Below, in pieces: positions 53,457-58,242 of a DNA stretch of 64,000 nt. A program made the translations under genes and the position numbers. How positions within the stretch are numbered: position 1 is the first letter of the stretch; every line of letters begins with the position of its first letter. This DNA comes from Escherichia virus TH41, in the sequence record MT446412.1; one strand, given 5' to 3'. Under the pieces are notes generated by a model that worked only from the letters and a program-made list of their open reading frames with translations, had not been told where the DNA came from and did no database searches.

Positions 53457-53790
53457 TATCGATTTATCTGATTTAGATAATTTCGAGAAAGATGCGGAGG
53501 GAGCTAAGGCTCCTTCTGTACCTTACTACGAAAAAAGTTTGGAGATTATCCGGCAATCCATGGGAACCGTACGACAGGAAATTCTGTTATCACTCCCTGA
53601 TGGGTCCAGTCACATTGTGTACGTAACCGGAATTAAAATTGAACCATCTGGAAAAGTTTCAGTTGATTTCGGCACCCCTTCTGAAGACCGCAAAGCGGAG
53701 CTTGCAGTGCATGTAGAAAAGTGTGTTACAATGCAAATACAAGATGAAATTGATAAGATTAAAATGAAAAAGAGGTGGTGGAAGTGGTAG
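53446..53790 (+). CDS. hypothetical protein (gene 40 position)
   Basis: 114 aa between uvsX and 41, same length as T4 gp40; identity not verified. Confidence 0.45.
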   Translation: MMNDIDLSDLDNFEKDAEGAKAPSVPYYEKSLEIIRQSMGTVRQEILLSLPDGSSHIVYVTGIKIEPSGKVSVDFGTPSEDRKAELAVHVEKCVTMQIQDEIDKIKMKKRWWKW

Positions 53791-55214
53791 AAACTATTTT
53801 ATCCCAGCTACTCTTTAACAAGGAATATTTTGTTAAAGTCTGGCCATATCTGAATAACACATATTTTGAAAAGGGTCCAGCAAAGACCCTTTTTAATACG
53901 ATTAACGAACACGTAAAAGAATATCAAGCGGTACCAACTAAGACTGCACTTGATATCGCGCTCGACAGTTCTGACCTTTCTGAAGTCGAATATGAAGGCA
54001 CAAAGAAACTCTTAGGAGTCCTGGCCGATACTCCAGAAGACCAGGAATGGTTGGTTAAAGAAACCGAGAAGTATGTACAGAAGTCTGCGATGTTCAATGC
54101 CACATCCAGGATTATCGAAATCCAGAGCAATGCCGAACTTCCGAAAGATAAACGTGATAAACGAATCCCGGATATTGGTGCTATCCCTGACATCATGCGC
54201 GATGCATTGTCTATCTGTTTTGACTCTGCTCTGGGCCATGACTGGTTAAACGATTACGAAGCTCGATTCCAGACTTATCTGAACAAATCGAAGAAGGTTC
54301 CGTTCCGTATTAACATCCTGAATAAAATCACGAAGGGCGGGGTTGAGTACGGTACAGAGAACGTTTTACTGGCCGGGACGAACGTCGGCAAATCCCTTGG
54401 ACTTTGTTCGCTGGCGGCTGACTATCTTCAGACTGGTCATAATGTGCTTTATATAAGCATGGAAATGGCTGAAGAAGTATGTGCCAAACGTATTGATGCC
54501 AACTTGCTGGATGTGTCTCTGGATGATATTGATGAAGGTCATGTGTCATGGGCGGAATACAAAAGTAAGATGGAAAAATGGCGTGCAGCCGGGACCCTTG
54601 GGACTCTGAAGATAAAACAATATCCAACTGGCGGTGCTCATGCGGATACCTTCCGTGCATTGCTGAATGAATACAAACTGAAGCAAGGGTTTGTGCCGGA
54701 TGTGATTATTGTTGACTACCTGGCAATCTGTGCAAGCTCAAGACTGAAAACGTTTACCGAAAACAGTTACGGCCTGATTAAGATGGTTGCAGAAGAACTT
54801 CGTGGTCTGGCGGTCGAGAAAAATGTGGTCCTGTGGACTGCAGCGCAGACAACCAGGGGTGCGAACGTTGCAGCTGAGATTGATATGGCTGACATCGCTG
54901 AATCTTTTGGTATTGCTCACACGGCCGACTTTATGTTGGGTGTTGTTGAGACCGAAGAATTCGCTCAAATGGGACTACAGTTAATCAAACAGCTTAAGTC
55001 TCGTTACGGCGATAAGAACTACTATAATAAATTCAAGATGGGTGTTAAGAAAGGTAATCAGCGCTGGTACGAGGTTGATGATGATTCAGCTCCTAAACAA
55101 GGCCCTACGGTTAAAGAAGCCACTGGTGAGATGAATCGCCAGGCTGAAATGAATAGACAAACCAGGGTCAACAGGAGCGACCTGGACGACCTTGCTGCTC
55201 AAATGAAATTCTAA
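53775..55214 (+). CDS. 41: replicative DNA helicase gp41 (DnaB-like)
   Basis: 479 aa; VWPY...YFE.GPAK and Walker A GTNVGKSLGLCSLAADYLQ.GHNVLYISMEMAEEV match T4 gp41. Confidence 0.95.
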   Translation: MVEVVETILSQLLFNKEYFVKVWPYLNNTYFEKGPAKTLFNTINEHVKEYQAVPTKTALDIALDSSDLSEVEYEGTKKLLGVLADTPEDQEWLVKETEKYVQKSAMFNATSRIIEIQSNAELPKDKRDKRIPDIGAIPDIMRDALSICFDSALGHDWLNDYEARFQTYLNKSKKVPFRINILNKITKGGVEYGTENVLLAGTNVGKSLGLCSLAADYLQTGHNVLYISMEMAEEVCAKRIDANLLDVSLDDIDEGHVSWAEYKSKMEKWRAAGTLGTLKIKQYPTGGAHADTFRALLNEYKLKQGFVPDVIIVDYLAICASSRLKTFTENSYGLIKMVAEELRGLAVEKNVVLWTAAQTTRGANVAAEIDMADIAESFGIAHTADFMLGVVETEEFAQMGLQLIKQLKSRYGDKNYYNKFKMGVKKGNQRWYEVDDDSAPKQGPTVKEATGEMNRQAEMNRQTRVNRSDLDDLAAQMKF

Positions 55215-55241: not shown

Positions 55242-55271
55242 GTTTACAACACCATAAAAAGGGTGTACTAT
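55242..55271 (+). promoter_or_regulatory. early promoter
   Basis: GTTTAC-18 nt-TACTAT; near-identical copy of the cassette at 23678. Confidence 0.5.
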
Positions 55272-55302
55272 TATCCCATCAACTACTGATGAGGATAATA
55301 AA

Positions 55303-55551
55303 ATGTTATTAGTTAATGTGCAGTACCAGTTCAAATCTGAAGAAGCTCTCCAAAAGTATGCTGATATTTGTGAGCATAATAAAAGAACAGCTGCCATTGT
55401 TGGTCTGAAGCCTTTTAAAATTTTGGATTGCTCCTTGAACAGAGCAAGACGCTGGTGTAGTGTTGCCTGTCATGCTTCAGTTGAAGGGAATGATTATTTT
55501 TTCATTACTTTCAATGCACAAGATTTTCATTTAATTAATGAATTAAAATAG
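55303..55551 (+). CDS. hypothetical protein
   Basis: 82 aa. Confidence 0.45.
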   Translation: MLLVNVQYQFKSEEALQKYADICEHNKRTAAIVGLKPFKILDCSLNRARRWCSVACHASVEGNDYFFITFNAQDFHLINELK

Positions 55552-55629: not shown

Positions 55630-55932
55630 ATGTTTAATCAAACCGATATGAACCGTTACTATTTTGGTCAGTTCGCTCGCCGTGATGAAAACTGTGCTGC
55701 TCTTATCGCATCAGGCATTCAAACTGGTAAATTAATAAAGCTCAAAAGCGATGTTCAACCTTCATCTGTTCGCAGCTCTCTTCGTGAGTATCTGCTTGCA
55801 GGCGGGGCAGTATATGTTATCGCTGAACCTTTTGTTAACGTGTGCGACGATTACACAATTAGTGTGACTGTTATGCACCCAACTACTGGGAAAATTCGTT
55901 GTCTGACTATGCACAACTATGAGTTGGCGTAA
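55630..55932 (+). CDS. hypothetical protein
   Basis: 100 aa. Confidence 0.45.
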   Translation: MFNQTDMNRYYFGQFARRDENCAALIASGIQTGKLIKLKSDVQPSSVRSSLREYLLAGGAVYVIAEPFVNVCDDYTISVTVMHPTTGKIRCLTMHNYELA

Positions 55933-55938
55933 GTGAAT

Positions 55939-55962
55939 AAAGGGGCTTACAGCCCCTTTTTC
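55939..55962 (+). terminator. Rho-independent terminator
   Basis: AAAGGGGC-TTACA-GCCCCTTT then TTC. Confidence 0.65.
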
Positions 55963-56000
55963 TTATGTTATAATGACTCTATCAACTACTGGAGAATAAA

Positions 56001-56318
56001 ATGAAAACCATTGATTGCAAGGCAGAATACAAAGTTTATTATCATGGGTCAAGTTCTAATGCTGGAATCCAAAATATGCTTTGTCCTCCTGATGCAACTG
56101 GTGTTCTGTCAGAAGTTGGGCGTAAGAAAAATTTAGGGCGTGTGTTTTTTACTGAAGATATTGGTTTGGCGCGTATCTATGCAGGAAGAGCAGCTCGCTC
56201 ATATGGAGGAGAACCCCGTCTTTATCGTGTGATTGCACCTGTTGACGTGGTTTGTTTAAATGATACTAAAGGCGCAACAGTTTATCACGCTGACTGGGCC
56301 TTCTGTGAGGAAATCTAA
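56001..56318 (+). CDS. hypothetical protein
   Basis: 105 aa; C-terminus ...AFCEEI shares junction with dmd-like gene. Confidence 0.45.
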   Translation: MKTIDCKAEYKVYYHGSSSNAGIQNMLCPPDATGVLSEVGRKKNLGRVFFTEDIGLARIYAGRAARSYGGEPRLYRVIAPVDVVCLNDTKGATVYHADWAFCEEI

Positions 56319-56522
56319 ATGTATAAATTAGAGAACGTAGTATTTATTGGTTGGTTTGAAAATGGTAATATGTTTACCAAAGAAACCGCGCTGGATGTCA
56401 GTGACAAAAATATGATTGAATGGGTTACAGTGCAGTATGCGGAAGTGAATAATGCGCTGGTTAAAGCCTTTGTTAATGACAATAAAGTTTTTGAATATGA
56501 TGCCCGCATTGAGGAAATCTAA
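56319..56522 (+). CDS. dmd: Dmd-like antitoxin (inhibitor of RnlA/LsoA-type RNases)
   Basis: VVF.GWF.N..MFTKE......D....W.T.QYAEVN.ALVKAF..D.KV resembles T4 Dmd as recalled; located between 41 and 61 as in T4. Confidence 0.6.
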   Translation: MYKLENVVFIGWFENGNMFTKETALDVSDKNMIEWVTVQYAEVNNALVKAFVNDNKVFEYDARIEEI

Positions 56523-56864
56523 ATGACTTTTAATCCAGAAGACCGCGTAAAAGTAACAATCAAAGTGAGTGCCGTTGGCGTTCCATCTTTTGAGCGCTCA
56601 AGTATGTTCCATCCCGCAGGTATTCACTGGTATGTTCAGAAGACTGCTGATAACTATAATGCGCTTGTTGAAGCTTTTGTTGATGGCGAGCTAATCCATA
56701 AAGTAGACATGCGTAAGGGCACTGCATTGCGTAATCTTATCTTGACCGTTGAAGCTCAACTGGTAAATGAAGAAATCTGCCTTACTGATATTGAAGCAGC
56801 TCTTCATATTGCACGTGCTGAATATTACAAATTGACTGGTTTTTCAGTTGAAGGTGAAAAATAA
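56523..56864 (+). CDS. Dmd paralog with N-terminal extension
   Basis: HWYVQKTADNYNALVEAFVDGELIHKVDMRKG parallels the Dmd core; tandem to dmd-like gene. Confidence 0.45.
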   Translation: MTFNPEDRVKVTIKVSAVGVPSFERSSMFHPAGIHWYVQKTADNYNALVEAFVDGELIHKVDMRKGTALRNLILTVEAQLVNEEICLTDIEAALHIARAEYYKLTGFSVEGEK

Positions 56865-56894
56865 GTGTACATCAAAGGGGTAATGCAGTATATT
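56865..56894 (+). promoter_or_regulatory. early promoter
   Basis: GTGTAC-18 nt-TATATT followed by CCCTATCAACTACTGAGGAG cassette. Confidence 0.45.
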
Positions 56895-56922
56895 ATCCCT
56901 ATCAACTACTGAGGAGATTGAA

Positions 56923-57216
56923 ATGAAAAAGTTATTAATCGCAGCAATTCTTACCGTAGCATCATGTGGTACAGCCCCAGTTACTGCTGGGCTTGATAAA
57001 GACCTTTGTGAGTGGTCCATGACTGCGGACCAGACTGATGTTGAACACCAGATTTATGCTGACATCATGAACATTACTAAACGTGACCACCCAGATATGG
57101 TTAAAGAAGTATCTGACCAACTGGCTTCTGGTGACGTTATGCAGTATAACTATGTTCTGTATTGCGATGCTTCATTTGACAACAGCAAGATTGTTCAATG
57201 GGTTACAGGTGAATAA
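56923..57216 (+). CDS. sp: Spackle (periplasmic lysozyme inhibitor / superinfection exclusion)
   Basis: 97 aa, signal peptide, DKDLCEWSMTADQT.VE.QI.ADIMNI.KRD.P.M...V...L.SG.VMQYNYVLYCD matches T4 Sp. Confidence 0.75.
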   Translation: MKKLLIAAILTVASCGTAPVTAGLDKDLCEWSMTADQTDVEHQIYADIMNITKRDHPDMVKEVSDQLASGDVMQYNYVLYCDASFDNSKIVQWVTGE

Positions 57217-57217
57217 A

Positions 57218-57658
57218 ATGATTAACAGAAATTTAGTTATCAAAAAACTTCGTTGTAAAAATCAAAATGCACAAGCATACAGGATGTTTTGGAGCGACGA
57301 ACCCATTCAATACCTGGGTTATTTTCTTGTTGATAGTGATAATAGAATTACGTTTGCTCATAAACTTCTTAACAAAGAATTAAACCATTGGCAAGAACTT
57401 ATTGCGGTCAAGTCTAAATTATTTTCGCGCAATACAATGCACCAATTGGTTTATTTTTTCGCTGACGGTATTCCTGACAAGGTTGAGTTTGATGGGTTTG
57501 AATTTAAAGACATCACCCCTGATAATGAATTGAATGACAGTATTGTTAATATGGGTATCCCGGGTAAGTACATCAAAAACAGTCTTTTGAAACTTCTGGA
57601 AACCCCTGTATATTCAGTTGACGACCAGATTTTTAATGCCTTCATGAAGCGAGATTAG
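57218..57658 (+). CDS. hypothetical protein (DDQIFNAFMKR tail)
   Basis: 146 aa; C-terminal 11 residues identical to next gene. Confidence 0.45.
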   Translation: MINRNLVIKKLRCKNQNAQAYRMFWSDEPIQYLGYFLVDSDNRITFAHKLLNKELNHWQELIAVKSKLFSRNTMHQLVYFFADGIPDKVEFDGFEFKDITPDNELNDSIVNMGIPGKYIKNSLLKLLETPVYSVDDQIFNAFMKRD

Positions 57659-57659
57659 T

Positions 57660-58019
57660 ATGAGTTATTATAATTTTCTGAATTTTGAACTGGCGAGCAA
57701 TAATGATGGTAATGCTCATTATGAATTTCGTGAGCCACGGTTTAATCAAGCGATTGGTTATATTATCGTCAAAGATGATGTTATCATAAAGGCTCGCTCA
57801 TTTATGGTAATGAATGGACCTTATGAAGATACTCGCGGCTATCCATTTGATAAAAAGAATGTGCGCGATTGTGCAGCATGGATAACCGGAAACCCCGAAA
57901 TTGGGGTCATGATATCTACTGAAGCGAATGACATTCTGGAAGGGGTTTGGGCCAAAGCTCAAGAATCGTCTATTGCTATTGACGACCAGATTTTTAATGC
58001 CTTCATGAAACGAGGTTAA
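57660..58019 (+). CDS. hypothetical protein (DDQIFNAFMKR tail)
   Basis: 119 aa; same C-terminal tail. Confidence 0.45.
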   Translation: MSYYNFLNFELASNNDGNAHYEFREPRFNQAIGYIIVKDDVIIKARSFMVMNGPYEDTRGYPFDKKNVRDCAAWITGNPEIGVMISTEANDILEGVWAKAQESSIAIDDQIFNAFMKRG

Positions 58020-58020
58020 T

Positions 58021-58242
58021 ATGTTTGTTTTAACTCAATTTTCTAAAGCAACATATAGCTACTCTTGTCAATGGGAAGTCTTCATTGATACACCGTCTCC
58101 CAAGTATGGAGTTTTCGGACGAGTAACTACACAAGCTTATGTTGCGCGACCAACCAAACGTCAGATTCGTAAGCTTAAAAAGGCGCATCGCCAACTGATT
58201 AAAAGAAGGGAACAATATGAGTGCAATGTGTACGGGCTCTAA
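58021..58242 (+). CDS. small basic hypothetical protein
   Basis: 73 aa. Confidence 0.4.
   Translation: MFVLTQFSKATYSYSCQWEVFIDTPSPKYGVFGRVTTQAYVARPTKRQIRKLKKAHRQLIKRREQYECNVYGL

Follow-up and report, generated by a model that had tools for sequence, protein, structure and literature searches.

Which protein does a T4-like phage encode directly behind its antitoxin gene dmd, and from where did that protein come? The question is raised by 64,000 nucleotides of Escherichia virus TH41 (sequence record MT446412.1; this whole stretch is called the window below), where a 67-aa open reading frame (ORF1, 56319-56522) is followed without any gap by one of 113 aa (ORF2, 56523-56864). Dmd is the classic phage-encoded antitoxin; the T4 protein (gp61.5) acts against the toxins RnlA and LsoA. 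The original prediction on this DNA described the two ORFs as a tandem duplication of a Dmd-like antitoxin, the second copy bearing a novel N-terminal extension, and suggested broadened specificity. We propose that ORF2 is, with high probability, a Dmd paralogue that has diverged and become joined to a foreign module. The phage itself is readily placed: the region is 99% identical to that of Escherichia phage UPEC01 over 2.9 kb and 95-96% identical to that of vB_EcoM_VR20 and its relatives (Straboviridae, Tevenvirinae, genus Gaprivervirus), and we assign the window to a T4-like Gaprivervirus phage.

The identity of ORF1 poses no difficulty, and its predicted resemblance to T4 Dmd was confirmed. 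It matches the Pfam family Dmd (PF17587; gathering threshold 27 bits) with 74.1 bits (E 1.1e-20) over profile positions 3-59 of 60, phrog_2102 with E 1.1e-33, RB69 Dmd (PDB 5i8j_A) over residues 1-63 with E 9e-22 and T4 Dmd (5hy3_B) over its full length with E 4.6e-17. Its counterpart is annotated as dmd in UPEC01, VR20 and SP18. We regard ORF1 as a genuine, ordinary Dmd antitoxin homologue and call it dmd from here on. Residues 29-54 of Dmd also weakly match phrog_24669 (145 aa, E 0.0087), in the helix region that ORF2 matches as well, and that family, too, may contain a Dmd-like segment.

For ORF2, library searches place the similarity to Dmd at the border of detection. The two proteins are 29% identical over 58 aa in BLASTP (E 2e-5); ORF2 matches phrog_2102 with E 3.3e-4, and Dmd matches phrog_23762, ORF2's own family, with E 0.065. 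The core motif said to recur in ORF2 indeed does so, as DNYNALVEAFV at aa 43-53 against YAEVNNALVKAFV at aa 40-52 of Dmd. A custom Dmd hidden Markov model (HMM) was built from 29 distinct Dmd sequences, including T6, RB69, Dhakavirus and Krischvirus types (over the stretch compared, T6 Dmd does not differ from T4 Dmd), and run, with filters disabled, against every six-frame ORF of the window that has 40 aa or more (699 ORFs). Dmd itself scored 137 bits, ORF2 19.6 bits (E 2.5e-5) and the next ORF 4.8 bits, while the maximum reached by 5,000 shuffled versions of ORF2 was 9.9 bits. The same model gave 24.7 bits for a close homologue of ORF2 (P0001) and 14.2 bits for the VR7-type orthologue. Alignment of the ORF2 family to the Dmd family by hhalign gave a probability of 90% (E 1.7e-6), pairing residues 33-66 of ORF2 with 32-65 of Dmd. 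Conversely, when 177,635 PDB sequences were searched with a profile of the ORF2 family, there were three matches, T4 Dmd ranking first (E 0.14) and RB69 Dmd third (E 0.27). Neither is significant alone, yet these are the only two solved Dmd proteins.

The DNA carries a trace of the same relation. ORF2 abuts dmd (TAA ATG), and a 30-nt patch of dmd (56449-56478, plus strand) returns in ORF2 (56656-56685, plus strand) with 26 of its 30 positions matching; blastn-short aligned it as 23/26 with E 2e-4. Because the two patches are spaced by 207 nt and the junction sequences at the starts of the two genes by 204 nt, dmd and ORF2 are in register from the start codon. The patch is a DNA-level remnant of duplication. 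As far as sequence comparison reaches, we conclude that the N-terminal part of ORF2 is a true but remote Dmd homologue. Aligned to Dmd, as had been proposed as a check, ORF1 is thus significant, and ORF2 remote and below the Pfam cutoff. The N-terminal domain of ORF2 shares 20-34% identity with every Dmd type, and the most distant pair of Dmd proteins still shares 37%.

A fold was predicted for ORF2 in a second AlphaFold2 run, for which the multiple sequence alignment combined the ORF2 family with Dmd sequences. Its mean predicted local distance difference test score (pLDDT) was 81, with residues 10-60 at about 90. The model predicts strands at 9-17 and 23-29, a helix at 31-45, strands at 47-53 and 56-62, and two further helices at 67-82 and 88-105. 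The N-terminal domain of the model superposes on T4 Dmd from the LsoA complex (5hy3_B) with a template modelling (TM) score of 0.92 and a root mean square deviation (rmsd) of 0.9 A, and on RB69 Dmd with a TM score of 0.85. The BFVD model of the VR25 orthologue, built without our alignment, agrees with the ORF2 model at a TM score of 0.70 over 110 columns, which may serve as a partial independent check.

The anatomy of ORF2 differs from that first proposed. In an L-INS-i alignment ORF2 residues from about 5 to 65 cover all of T4-type Dmd with no internal gap and an N-terminal offset of about five residues; relative to the neighbouring dmd the offset is a single codon, and the core motif is equally far from the ATG in both genes. 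What was described as a novel extension belongs to the Dmd domain: it is the N-terminal beta-hairpin of that domain, in diverged form. The true addition, overlooked before, lies at the other end: ORF2 is not a single-domain protein of about 60-70 aa like Dmd, and its residues 66-113 form a separate module of about 47 aa with the pattern LIL.VE..L..EEIC.SDIE.A...AR.EYY.LTG.SVEGEK. This module also exists alone. In the Dhakavirus ESCO10 it is a 50-aa ORF (ESCO10_00268) between a 46-aa Zn-ribbon ORF and spackle, and it makes up three further ORFs of 50-55 aa (P0003, P0004, P0008), two of them on contigs of 135 kb and 142 kb within arrays of small genes mostly without Pfam matches. Two longer proteins, P0034 (99 aa) and P0035 (174 aa), end in the module, and phrog_27940 contains it as well. 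Against residues 68-113 of ORF2 these homologues show 45-69% identity and keep the SVEGEK end. At the fusion joint, DMRKGTAL of ORF2 aligns with MSKATAL, the start of the stand-alone P0004, and the ORF2 segment "...VDMRKGTALRNLIL" overlaps both the end of Dmd (D-x-R) and the P0004 start ("MSKATALCSLKNLIL"). Since the module occurs as a stand-alone ORF in other phages, ORF2 appears to be a dmd copy fused to a small independent phage gene. A PDB profile search with the module gave no match among solved structures.

Both parts of ORF2 seem to be maintained. The ORF2 sequences of the window and of VR20 differ at 16 synonymous and 4 nonsynonymous sites, which corresponds to a ratio of nonsynonymous to synonymous substitution rates (dN/dS) of 0.06. 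Against VR7 the ratio is 0.15 with saturated dS, and both halves are constrained: the N-terminal domain has a proportion of nonsynonymous differences (pN) of 0.30 against 0.80 for synonymous ones (pS), and the C-terminal module has dN/dS 0.18. For comparison, dN/dS of dmd itself is about 0.10. We read ORF2 as a real gene that purifying selection maintains in a few Gapriverviruses. When 1.84 billion representative proteins were searched exhaustively with HMMER, two full-length clusters were found, the type of the window and the VR7/VR25 type (62-63% identity), along with three short proteins of the C-terminal module. Four long proteins with multiple short-stretch matches (P0005-7, P0009) were treated as compositional noise. 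By tblastn, a full-length copy is present in 14 phage records; T4, RB69, SP18 and most phages with Dmd are without it. The family is labelled hypothetical in all database records, and the literature searched contained no paper on a Dmd paralogue or on the ORF2 family. A word-indexed protein database search with ORF2 returned its own cluster only, Pfam gave nothing over threshold for ORF2, the VR7 orthologue or the C-terminal module proteins, and PADLOC nothing over threshold for ORF2 and its neighbours.

How, then, did a second copy arise? The starts of dmd and ORF2 share the exact 16-nt junction TGAGGAAATCTAAATG, whose two copies lie 204 nt apart, that is, one dmd length. No third copy of the 16-mer exists in the 64 kb, even if two mismatches are tolerated, and none of 100 shuffles yielded two matches of the 15-mer version. 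The shared junction stood as originally described, but its reading as a mark of duplication did not. The 15-mer GAGGAAATCTAAATG, which combines a Shine-Dalgarno sequence, stop and start and encodes an ...EEI tail, stands on both sides of dmd in VR20, IME08 and ESCO10. In IME08 and ESCO10 its second copy is followed by an unrelated Zn-ribbon ORF of 46 aa (phrog_13952), and the junction was rejected as a duplication scar, since these two phages have no Dmd-like ORF2 domain behind it. Because the same 15-mer flanks dmd in phages without ORF2, we take the junction to be a portable, generic translational-coupling linker of this phage group. The Zn-ribbon ORF (CxxC...CxxC) follows dmd in Dhakaviruses (ESCO10 region 1849-1989; IME08 region 1678-1818, unannotated in the IME08 record).

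The linker copies are nevertheless direct repeats exactly one dmd apart. Unequal crossover at this microhomology could have produced a precise tandem duplication of dmd in which each copy kept its own ribosome site. The second copy has diverged strongly and become fused in frame to a small downstream gene for the two-helix module. In T4, tandem dmd-tifA amplifications arise through recombination at microhomologies within a few passages (PMC9391042). SP18 illustrates the opposite course. It has no ORF2, and its dmd ends in ...SNEK and a stop, followed by GAAAAATAAgtgtaca, which corresponds to the end of ORF2 (...EGEK, stop) and the 3' flank of ORF2 (SP18 region 2780-2840 compared with window 56480-56880). 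Because SP18 dmd carries the last codons of ORF2 and its 3' flank, SP18 is a deletion derivative, and the hybrid tail ...SNEK of its Dmd was left by the deletion. The low identity between ORF2 and Dmd fits fast divergence after duplication, and an old duplication would need reconciling with the very narrow distribution of ORF2. Dating by identities was given up: ORF2 is equidistant from all Dmd types, and the two cases are inseparable by this means. The idea of a tandem Dmd duplication thus survives as paralogy, carried by the custom HMM, hhalign, the in-register DNA patch and the fold model, whereas the anatomy and the duplication mark first attached to it do not.

What may the second copy do? 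In Dmd sequences 25 positions are conserved to 90% or more, and at these we compared ORF2 (T4 numbering). It keeps 12 of them (the start Met, F18, W31, A37, A42, L43, V44, A46, F47, V48, D57 and R59), mostly hydrophobic residues that we take as the fold core. The other 13 are replaced: F8, G10, G15, K20, D28 (by G), T33, Q35 (by K), E38 (by D), N40 (by Y or H), D50 (by G), V53, F54 and E55 (by K). The replacement is identical in the two ORF2 subtypes at D28, Q35, E38, D50, F54 and E55. In LsoA, Dmd occupies the groove that lies between NRD/TBP2 and the HEPN domain (PMC8266594), and according to a preprint on lambda Ea22 and Dmd, D28 and Q35 contact R243 and R305 of LsoA. A lysine at Q35 facing an arginine argues against Dmd's docking mode for ORF2. 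Further, ORF2 is under purifying selection and has its site in a known anti-toxin island (dmd, a tifA-like gene and a tail like that of 61.2/adfA).

We suggest that in the Dmd-like domain the fold core was kept and the conserved surface changed (D28 to G, Q35 to K, E55 to K). Because of these changed residues, the most likely role of ORF2 would be that of an early-made, stoichiometric protein inhibitor which works like Dmd but is aimed at a host factor different from the RnlA/LsoA surface recognised by Dmd. Its target could be a divergent HEPN RNase toxin of the RnlA/LsoA type or another defence protein, and the C-terminal module would give ORF2 another surface for binding or oligomerisation. 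As a whole, the proposal of a fused, dmd-derived paralogue together with its function has in our estimate a probability of about 0.5. The functional part taken by itself, an anti-defence inhibitor with a target different from that of Dmd, we put forward tentatively, at somewhat less than an even chance. We are more hesitant still about its full form, in which a surface-changed dmd duplicate and a captured gene make a naturally evolved counter-defence protein that neutralises a factor Dmd cannot. Broadened specificity for more than one toxin, as suggested originally, may be plausible: purifying selection and the position in the anti-toxin island speak for it, and the replaced residues speak against simple redundancy with Dmd.

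Several points weigh against these proposals. ORF2 reaches 12.5 bits with Pfam Dmd (below the threshold of 27; E 0.19), over profile positions 29-59 only. Statistical alignment support is limited to ORF2 residues of about 33-66, the N-terminal hairpin being matched by length and predicted secondary structure only, and the search of 1.84 billion proteins with ORF2 recovered no Dmd representative at E 0.001. AlphaFold2 run on the single ORF2 sequence gave a poor pLDDT of 46.5, and Foldseek matches of that model (ion channels, VP39) were discarded as noise. The agreement of the later model with Dmd is partly circular, as Dmd sequences were in its alignment. The small beta-beta-alpha-beta-beta fold is moreover common among uncharacterised phage proteins in a BFVD search, so that the case for homology rests on sequence and DNA and not on the fold. 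The LsoA contact residues come from a second-hand source whose numbering is partly inconsistent. Given only two full-length clusters, ORF2 may also be a transient, dispensable variant. Some of these points would favour mere chance, or convergence on a common small fold, as the source of the likeness: ORF2 stays under the Pfam threshold, database-wide searches do not reach Dmd, and many unrelated small phage proteins have the same fold. Nevertheless, we consider this explanation very improbable. ORF2 is the only other match of the Dmd model among the 699 ORFs and stands well over the shuffled sequences, hhalign gives 90%, two of the three matches in the reverse PDB search are the solved Dmd proteins, and the adjacent genes are in register and share the 26/30-nt patch.

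If homology is granted, the function may still be another. ORF2 could be a redundant or dosage copy that binds RnlA/LsoA-type toxins as Dmd does and only increases or extends the supply of antitoxin, perhaps against alleles that escape Dmd; it is homologous to Dmd, belongs to the same operon and keeps the fold core, and T4 overcomes stronger toxin expression by amplifying the dmd locus. We find this unlikely because ORF2 resembles any Dmd less than the most distant Dmd proteins resemble each other, because 13 of the 25 conserved positions are replaced, D28, Q35 and E55 identically in both subtypes, and because a pure dosage copy would not need a fused module. An about equally unlikely explanation places the function in the C-terminal module and sees in the Dmd-like part a passive remnant of an accidental fusion. 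The module is indeed conserved and widespread as an ORF of 50-55 aa, and ESCO10 has it without the Dmd-like domain; against this speak the 4 nonsynonymous differences in whole ORF2 relative to VR20, the lower pN than pS of the N-terminal domain relative to VR7, and the Dmd core residues kept in both subtypes. Less likely than either is that ORF2 acts through Dmd, its Dmd-like domain pairing with, modulating, stabilising or localising Dmd and the C-terminal module having another function. The 5i8j structure has two RB69 Dmd chains and is described as dimeric, translational coupling would supply Dmd and ORF2 in matched amounts, and the fold core is kept in ORF2. However, ORF2 is absent from most phages that carry Dmd, T4, RB69 and SP18 among them, there is no sign that Dmd needs a partner, and the module stands alone in other phages that show no Dmd beside it.

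The features of the locus are collected in the table below. As in T4, dmd lies in the interval between genes 41 and 61, upstream of sp. This interval of T4-type phages contains dmd (61.5, against RnlA/LsoA), tifA (61.4, against ToxN) and adfA (61.2, against DarT) (PMC9391042). The ORF starting at 56001, dmd and ORF2 abut, each stop and ATG falling inside one junction sequence. Because a promoter-like site (55946-55974) precedes the three genes and the next cassette (56866-56926) precedes spackle, they look like one early unit with coupled translation, which probably starts at the hairpin and promoter-like site at 55939-55974. The -10/5' untranslated region (UTR) cassette TATAATGACTCTATCAACTACTG recurs at 55266-55288 and 56889-56911. 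In its wider form, TAT(A/T)(A/T)T...C(T)ATCAACTACTG...ATG, there are three copies (55266-55303, 55969-56006 and 56889-56926), which precede the goF-like ORF, the 56001 ORF and spackle, respectively; these are probably early-promoter cassettes of the type thought to mediate module shuffling.

Features of the dmd locus (positions in the window; all on the plus strand)
Feature	Position	Strand	Basis
gp41 helicase	53775-55214	+	
goF-like ORF	55303-55551	+	library profile match
Hypothetical ORF	55630-55932	+	
Terminator-like hairpin (55939-55959), overlapping promoter-like site CTTACA-17-TATAAT (55946-55974)	55939-55974	+	
105-aa ORF (phrog_2110), first gene of the unit, ends ...CEEI, translationally coupled to dmd	56001-56318	+	
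Junction copy 1, TGAGGAAATCTAAATG: Shine-Dalgarno GAGG, stop of upstream gene, dmd ATG	56306-56321	+	
dmd (ORF1), 67 aa	56319-56522	+	Pfam, PHROG and PDB matches
Junction copy 2, identical 16 nt: dmd stop, ORF2 ATG	56510-56525	+	
ORF2, 113 aa	56523-56864	+	
ORF2 residues 1-65, diverged Dmd-like domain, predicted beta-beta-alpha-beta-beta	56523-56717	+	HMM, hhalign, fold model
ORF2 residues 66-113 and stop, C-terminal two-helix module	56718-56864	+	stand-alone homologues, predicted helices
Promoter-like site and 5'UTR cassette of the spackle unit; 3' limit of the dmd unit	56866-56926	+	
spackle	56923-57216	+	Pfam T4_Spackle, E 2.5e-43
ORF with tail in common with gp61.2	57218-57658	+	
ORF with tail in common with gp61.2	57660-58019	+	
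gp61.4/TifA-like ORF	58021-58242	+	

The gene of the 56001 ORF also precedes dmd in SP18, VR20 and ESCO10. In VR7 and IME08 the ORFs before dmd are annotated as RB69 ORF040c-like, and their link to the 56001 ORF is by annotation and position only; T6 has no gene of this type before dmd. The protein has YYHGS near its N-terminus and no Pfam match, and is a candidate additional anti-defence gene. Behind spackle, the two ORFs with the gp61.2-type tail (phrog_8539 and phrog_4122, in this order) are otherwise unrelated and share the same 45-nt end, 93% identical (57618-57662 and 57979-58023), which encodes ...DDQIFNAFMKR(D/G) and the next start codon. T6 gp61.2 (AdfA family) closes with the same tail. 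It looks like another portable gene-end linker, resembling the EEI junction around dmd.

The TifA-like protein of the window is 39% identical to T6 gp61.4 over 49 aa and has a basic cluster, RPTKRQIR. Its gene lies about 1.2 kb downstream, past spackle and the two ORFs just described, whereas in T4 it adjoins dmd; VR7 has a second gp61.4-like gene (ORF041c) directly after its ORF2. Since a TifA homologue could be expected behind dmd, ORF2 was considered as one and rejected, because BLASTP found no match at E <= 1 to gp61.4 of T4, T6, IME08 or VR7. The gp61.4 homologues find one another and the TifA-like ORF of the window in such searches, not ORF2. Some public labels in the compared genomes are unreliable. 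In ESCO10 (OM386655) Dmd is called a zinc ribbon domain-containing protein, the C-terminal module ORF a modifier of suppressor tRNAs and spackle a modifier of transcription, and the TifA homologue of T6 (NC_054907) is mislabelled DNA primase/helicase.

Where does this leave ORF2 among known systems? With T4 Dmd (PF17587; 5HY3 chain B; RB69 counterpart 5I8J), of which ORF1 is a member, it has in common the length and predicted topology of the N-terminal domain, core residues, genomic place and early operon. It departs from T4 Dmd in total length, in the added helical module, in its low identity and sub-cutoff Pfam score, and in the replacement of the conserved D28, T33, Q35, E38, N40, D50 and E55. 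We would not class ORF2 with Dmd: its Pfam score falls short of the threshold, it has a module besides the Dmd-like domain, and half of the conserved positions are changed. It is better described as a homologue that may work like Dmd. Like TifA (T4 gp61.4), the inhibitor of ToxN encoded behind dmd in T4, T2, T6 and RB69, ORF2 fills the slot directly after dmd, but it has no sequence similarity to it, and the window carries its TifA-like gene further downstream. The stand-alone ORFs (ESCO10_00268, P0003, P0004, P0008) resemble its C-terminal part, lack the Dmd-like domain and belong to other groups of phages. Many uncharacterised phage proteins of 60-70 aa have a Dmd-like fold without detectable sequence similarity, for example X2KMG5 of Escherichia phage Bp4 (63 aa; TM score 0.78, rmsd 1.1 A), and this fold may be a common small-inhibitor scaffold.

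The same locus was amplified in T4 under toxIN selection (Srikant, Guegler and Laub 2022, PMC9391042); the tandem repeats selected there were driven by counter-defence and arose by recombination at short homologies. In the window, such an amplification seems to have been fixed in nature and to have diverged. It differs from the amplifications of the laboratory, which are identical multi-copy repeats acting through TifA dosage, in holding one extra dmd copy, diverged and fused.

The locus is an anti-toxin gene island that is amplified under selection, and the literature searched treats its best known member, Dmd, as a single-copy, single-domain protein, with no paralogue reported. If ORF2 only duplicates the function of Dmd or lacks a function altogether, it belongs with the ordinary accessory genes of a hyperplastic region. 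It looks, however, like a counter-defence gene duplicated and re-tooled in nature. If our assumptions are true, a fixed and fused paralogue shows the natural fate of such amplifications, namely neofunctionalisation and domain capture, and the linkers around dmd would be a built-in device to duplicate and shuffle anti-defence cassettes. Should the re-targeting be real, the Dmd fold is a re-targetable inhibitor scaffold, and ORF2 offers a concrete 113-aa candidate toward a new toxin-inhibitor pair.

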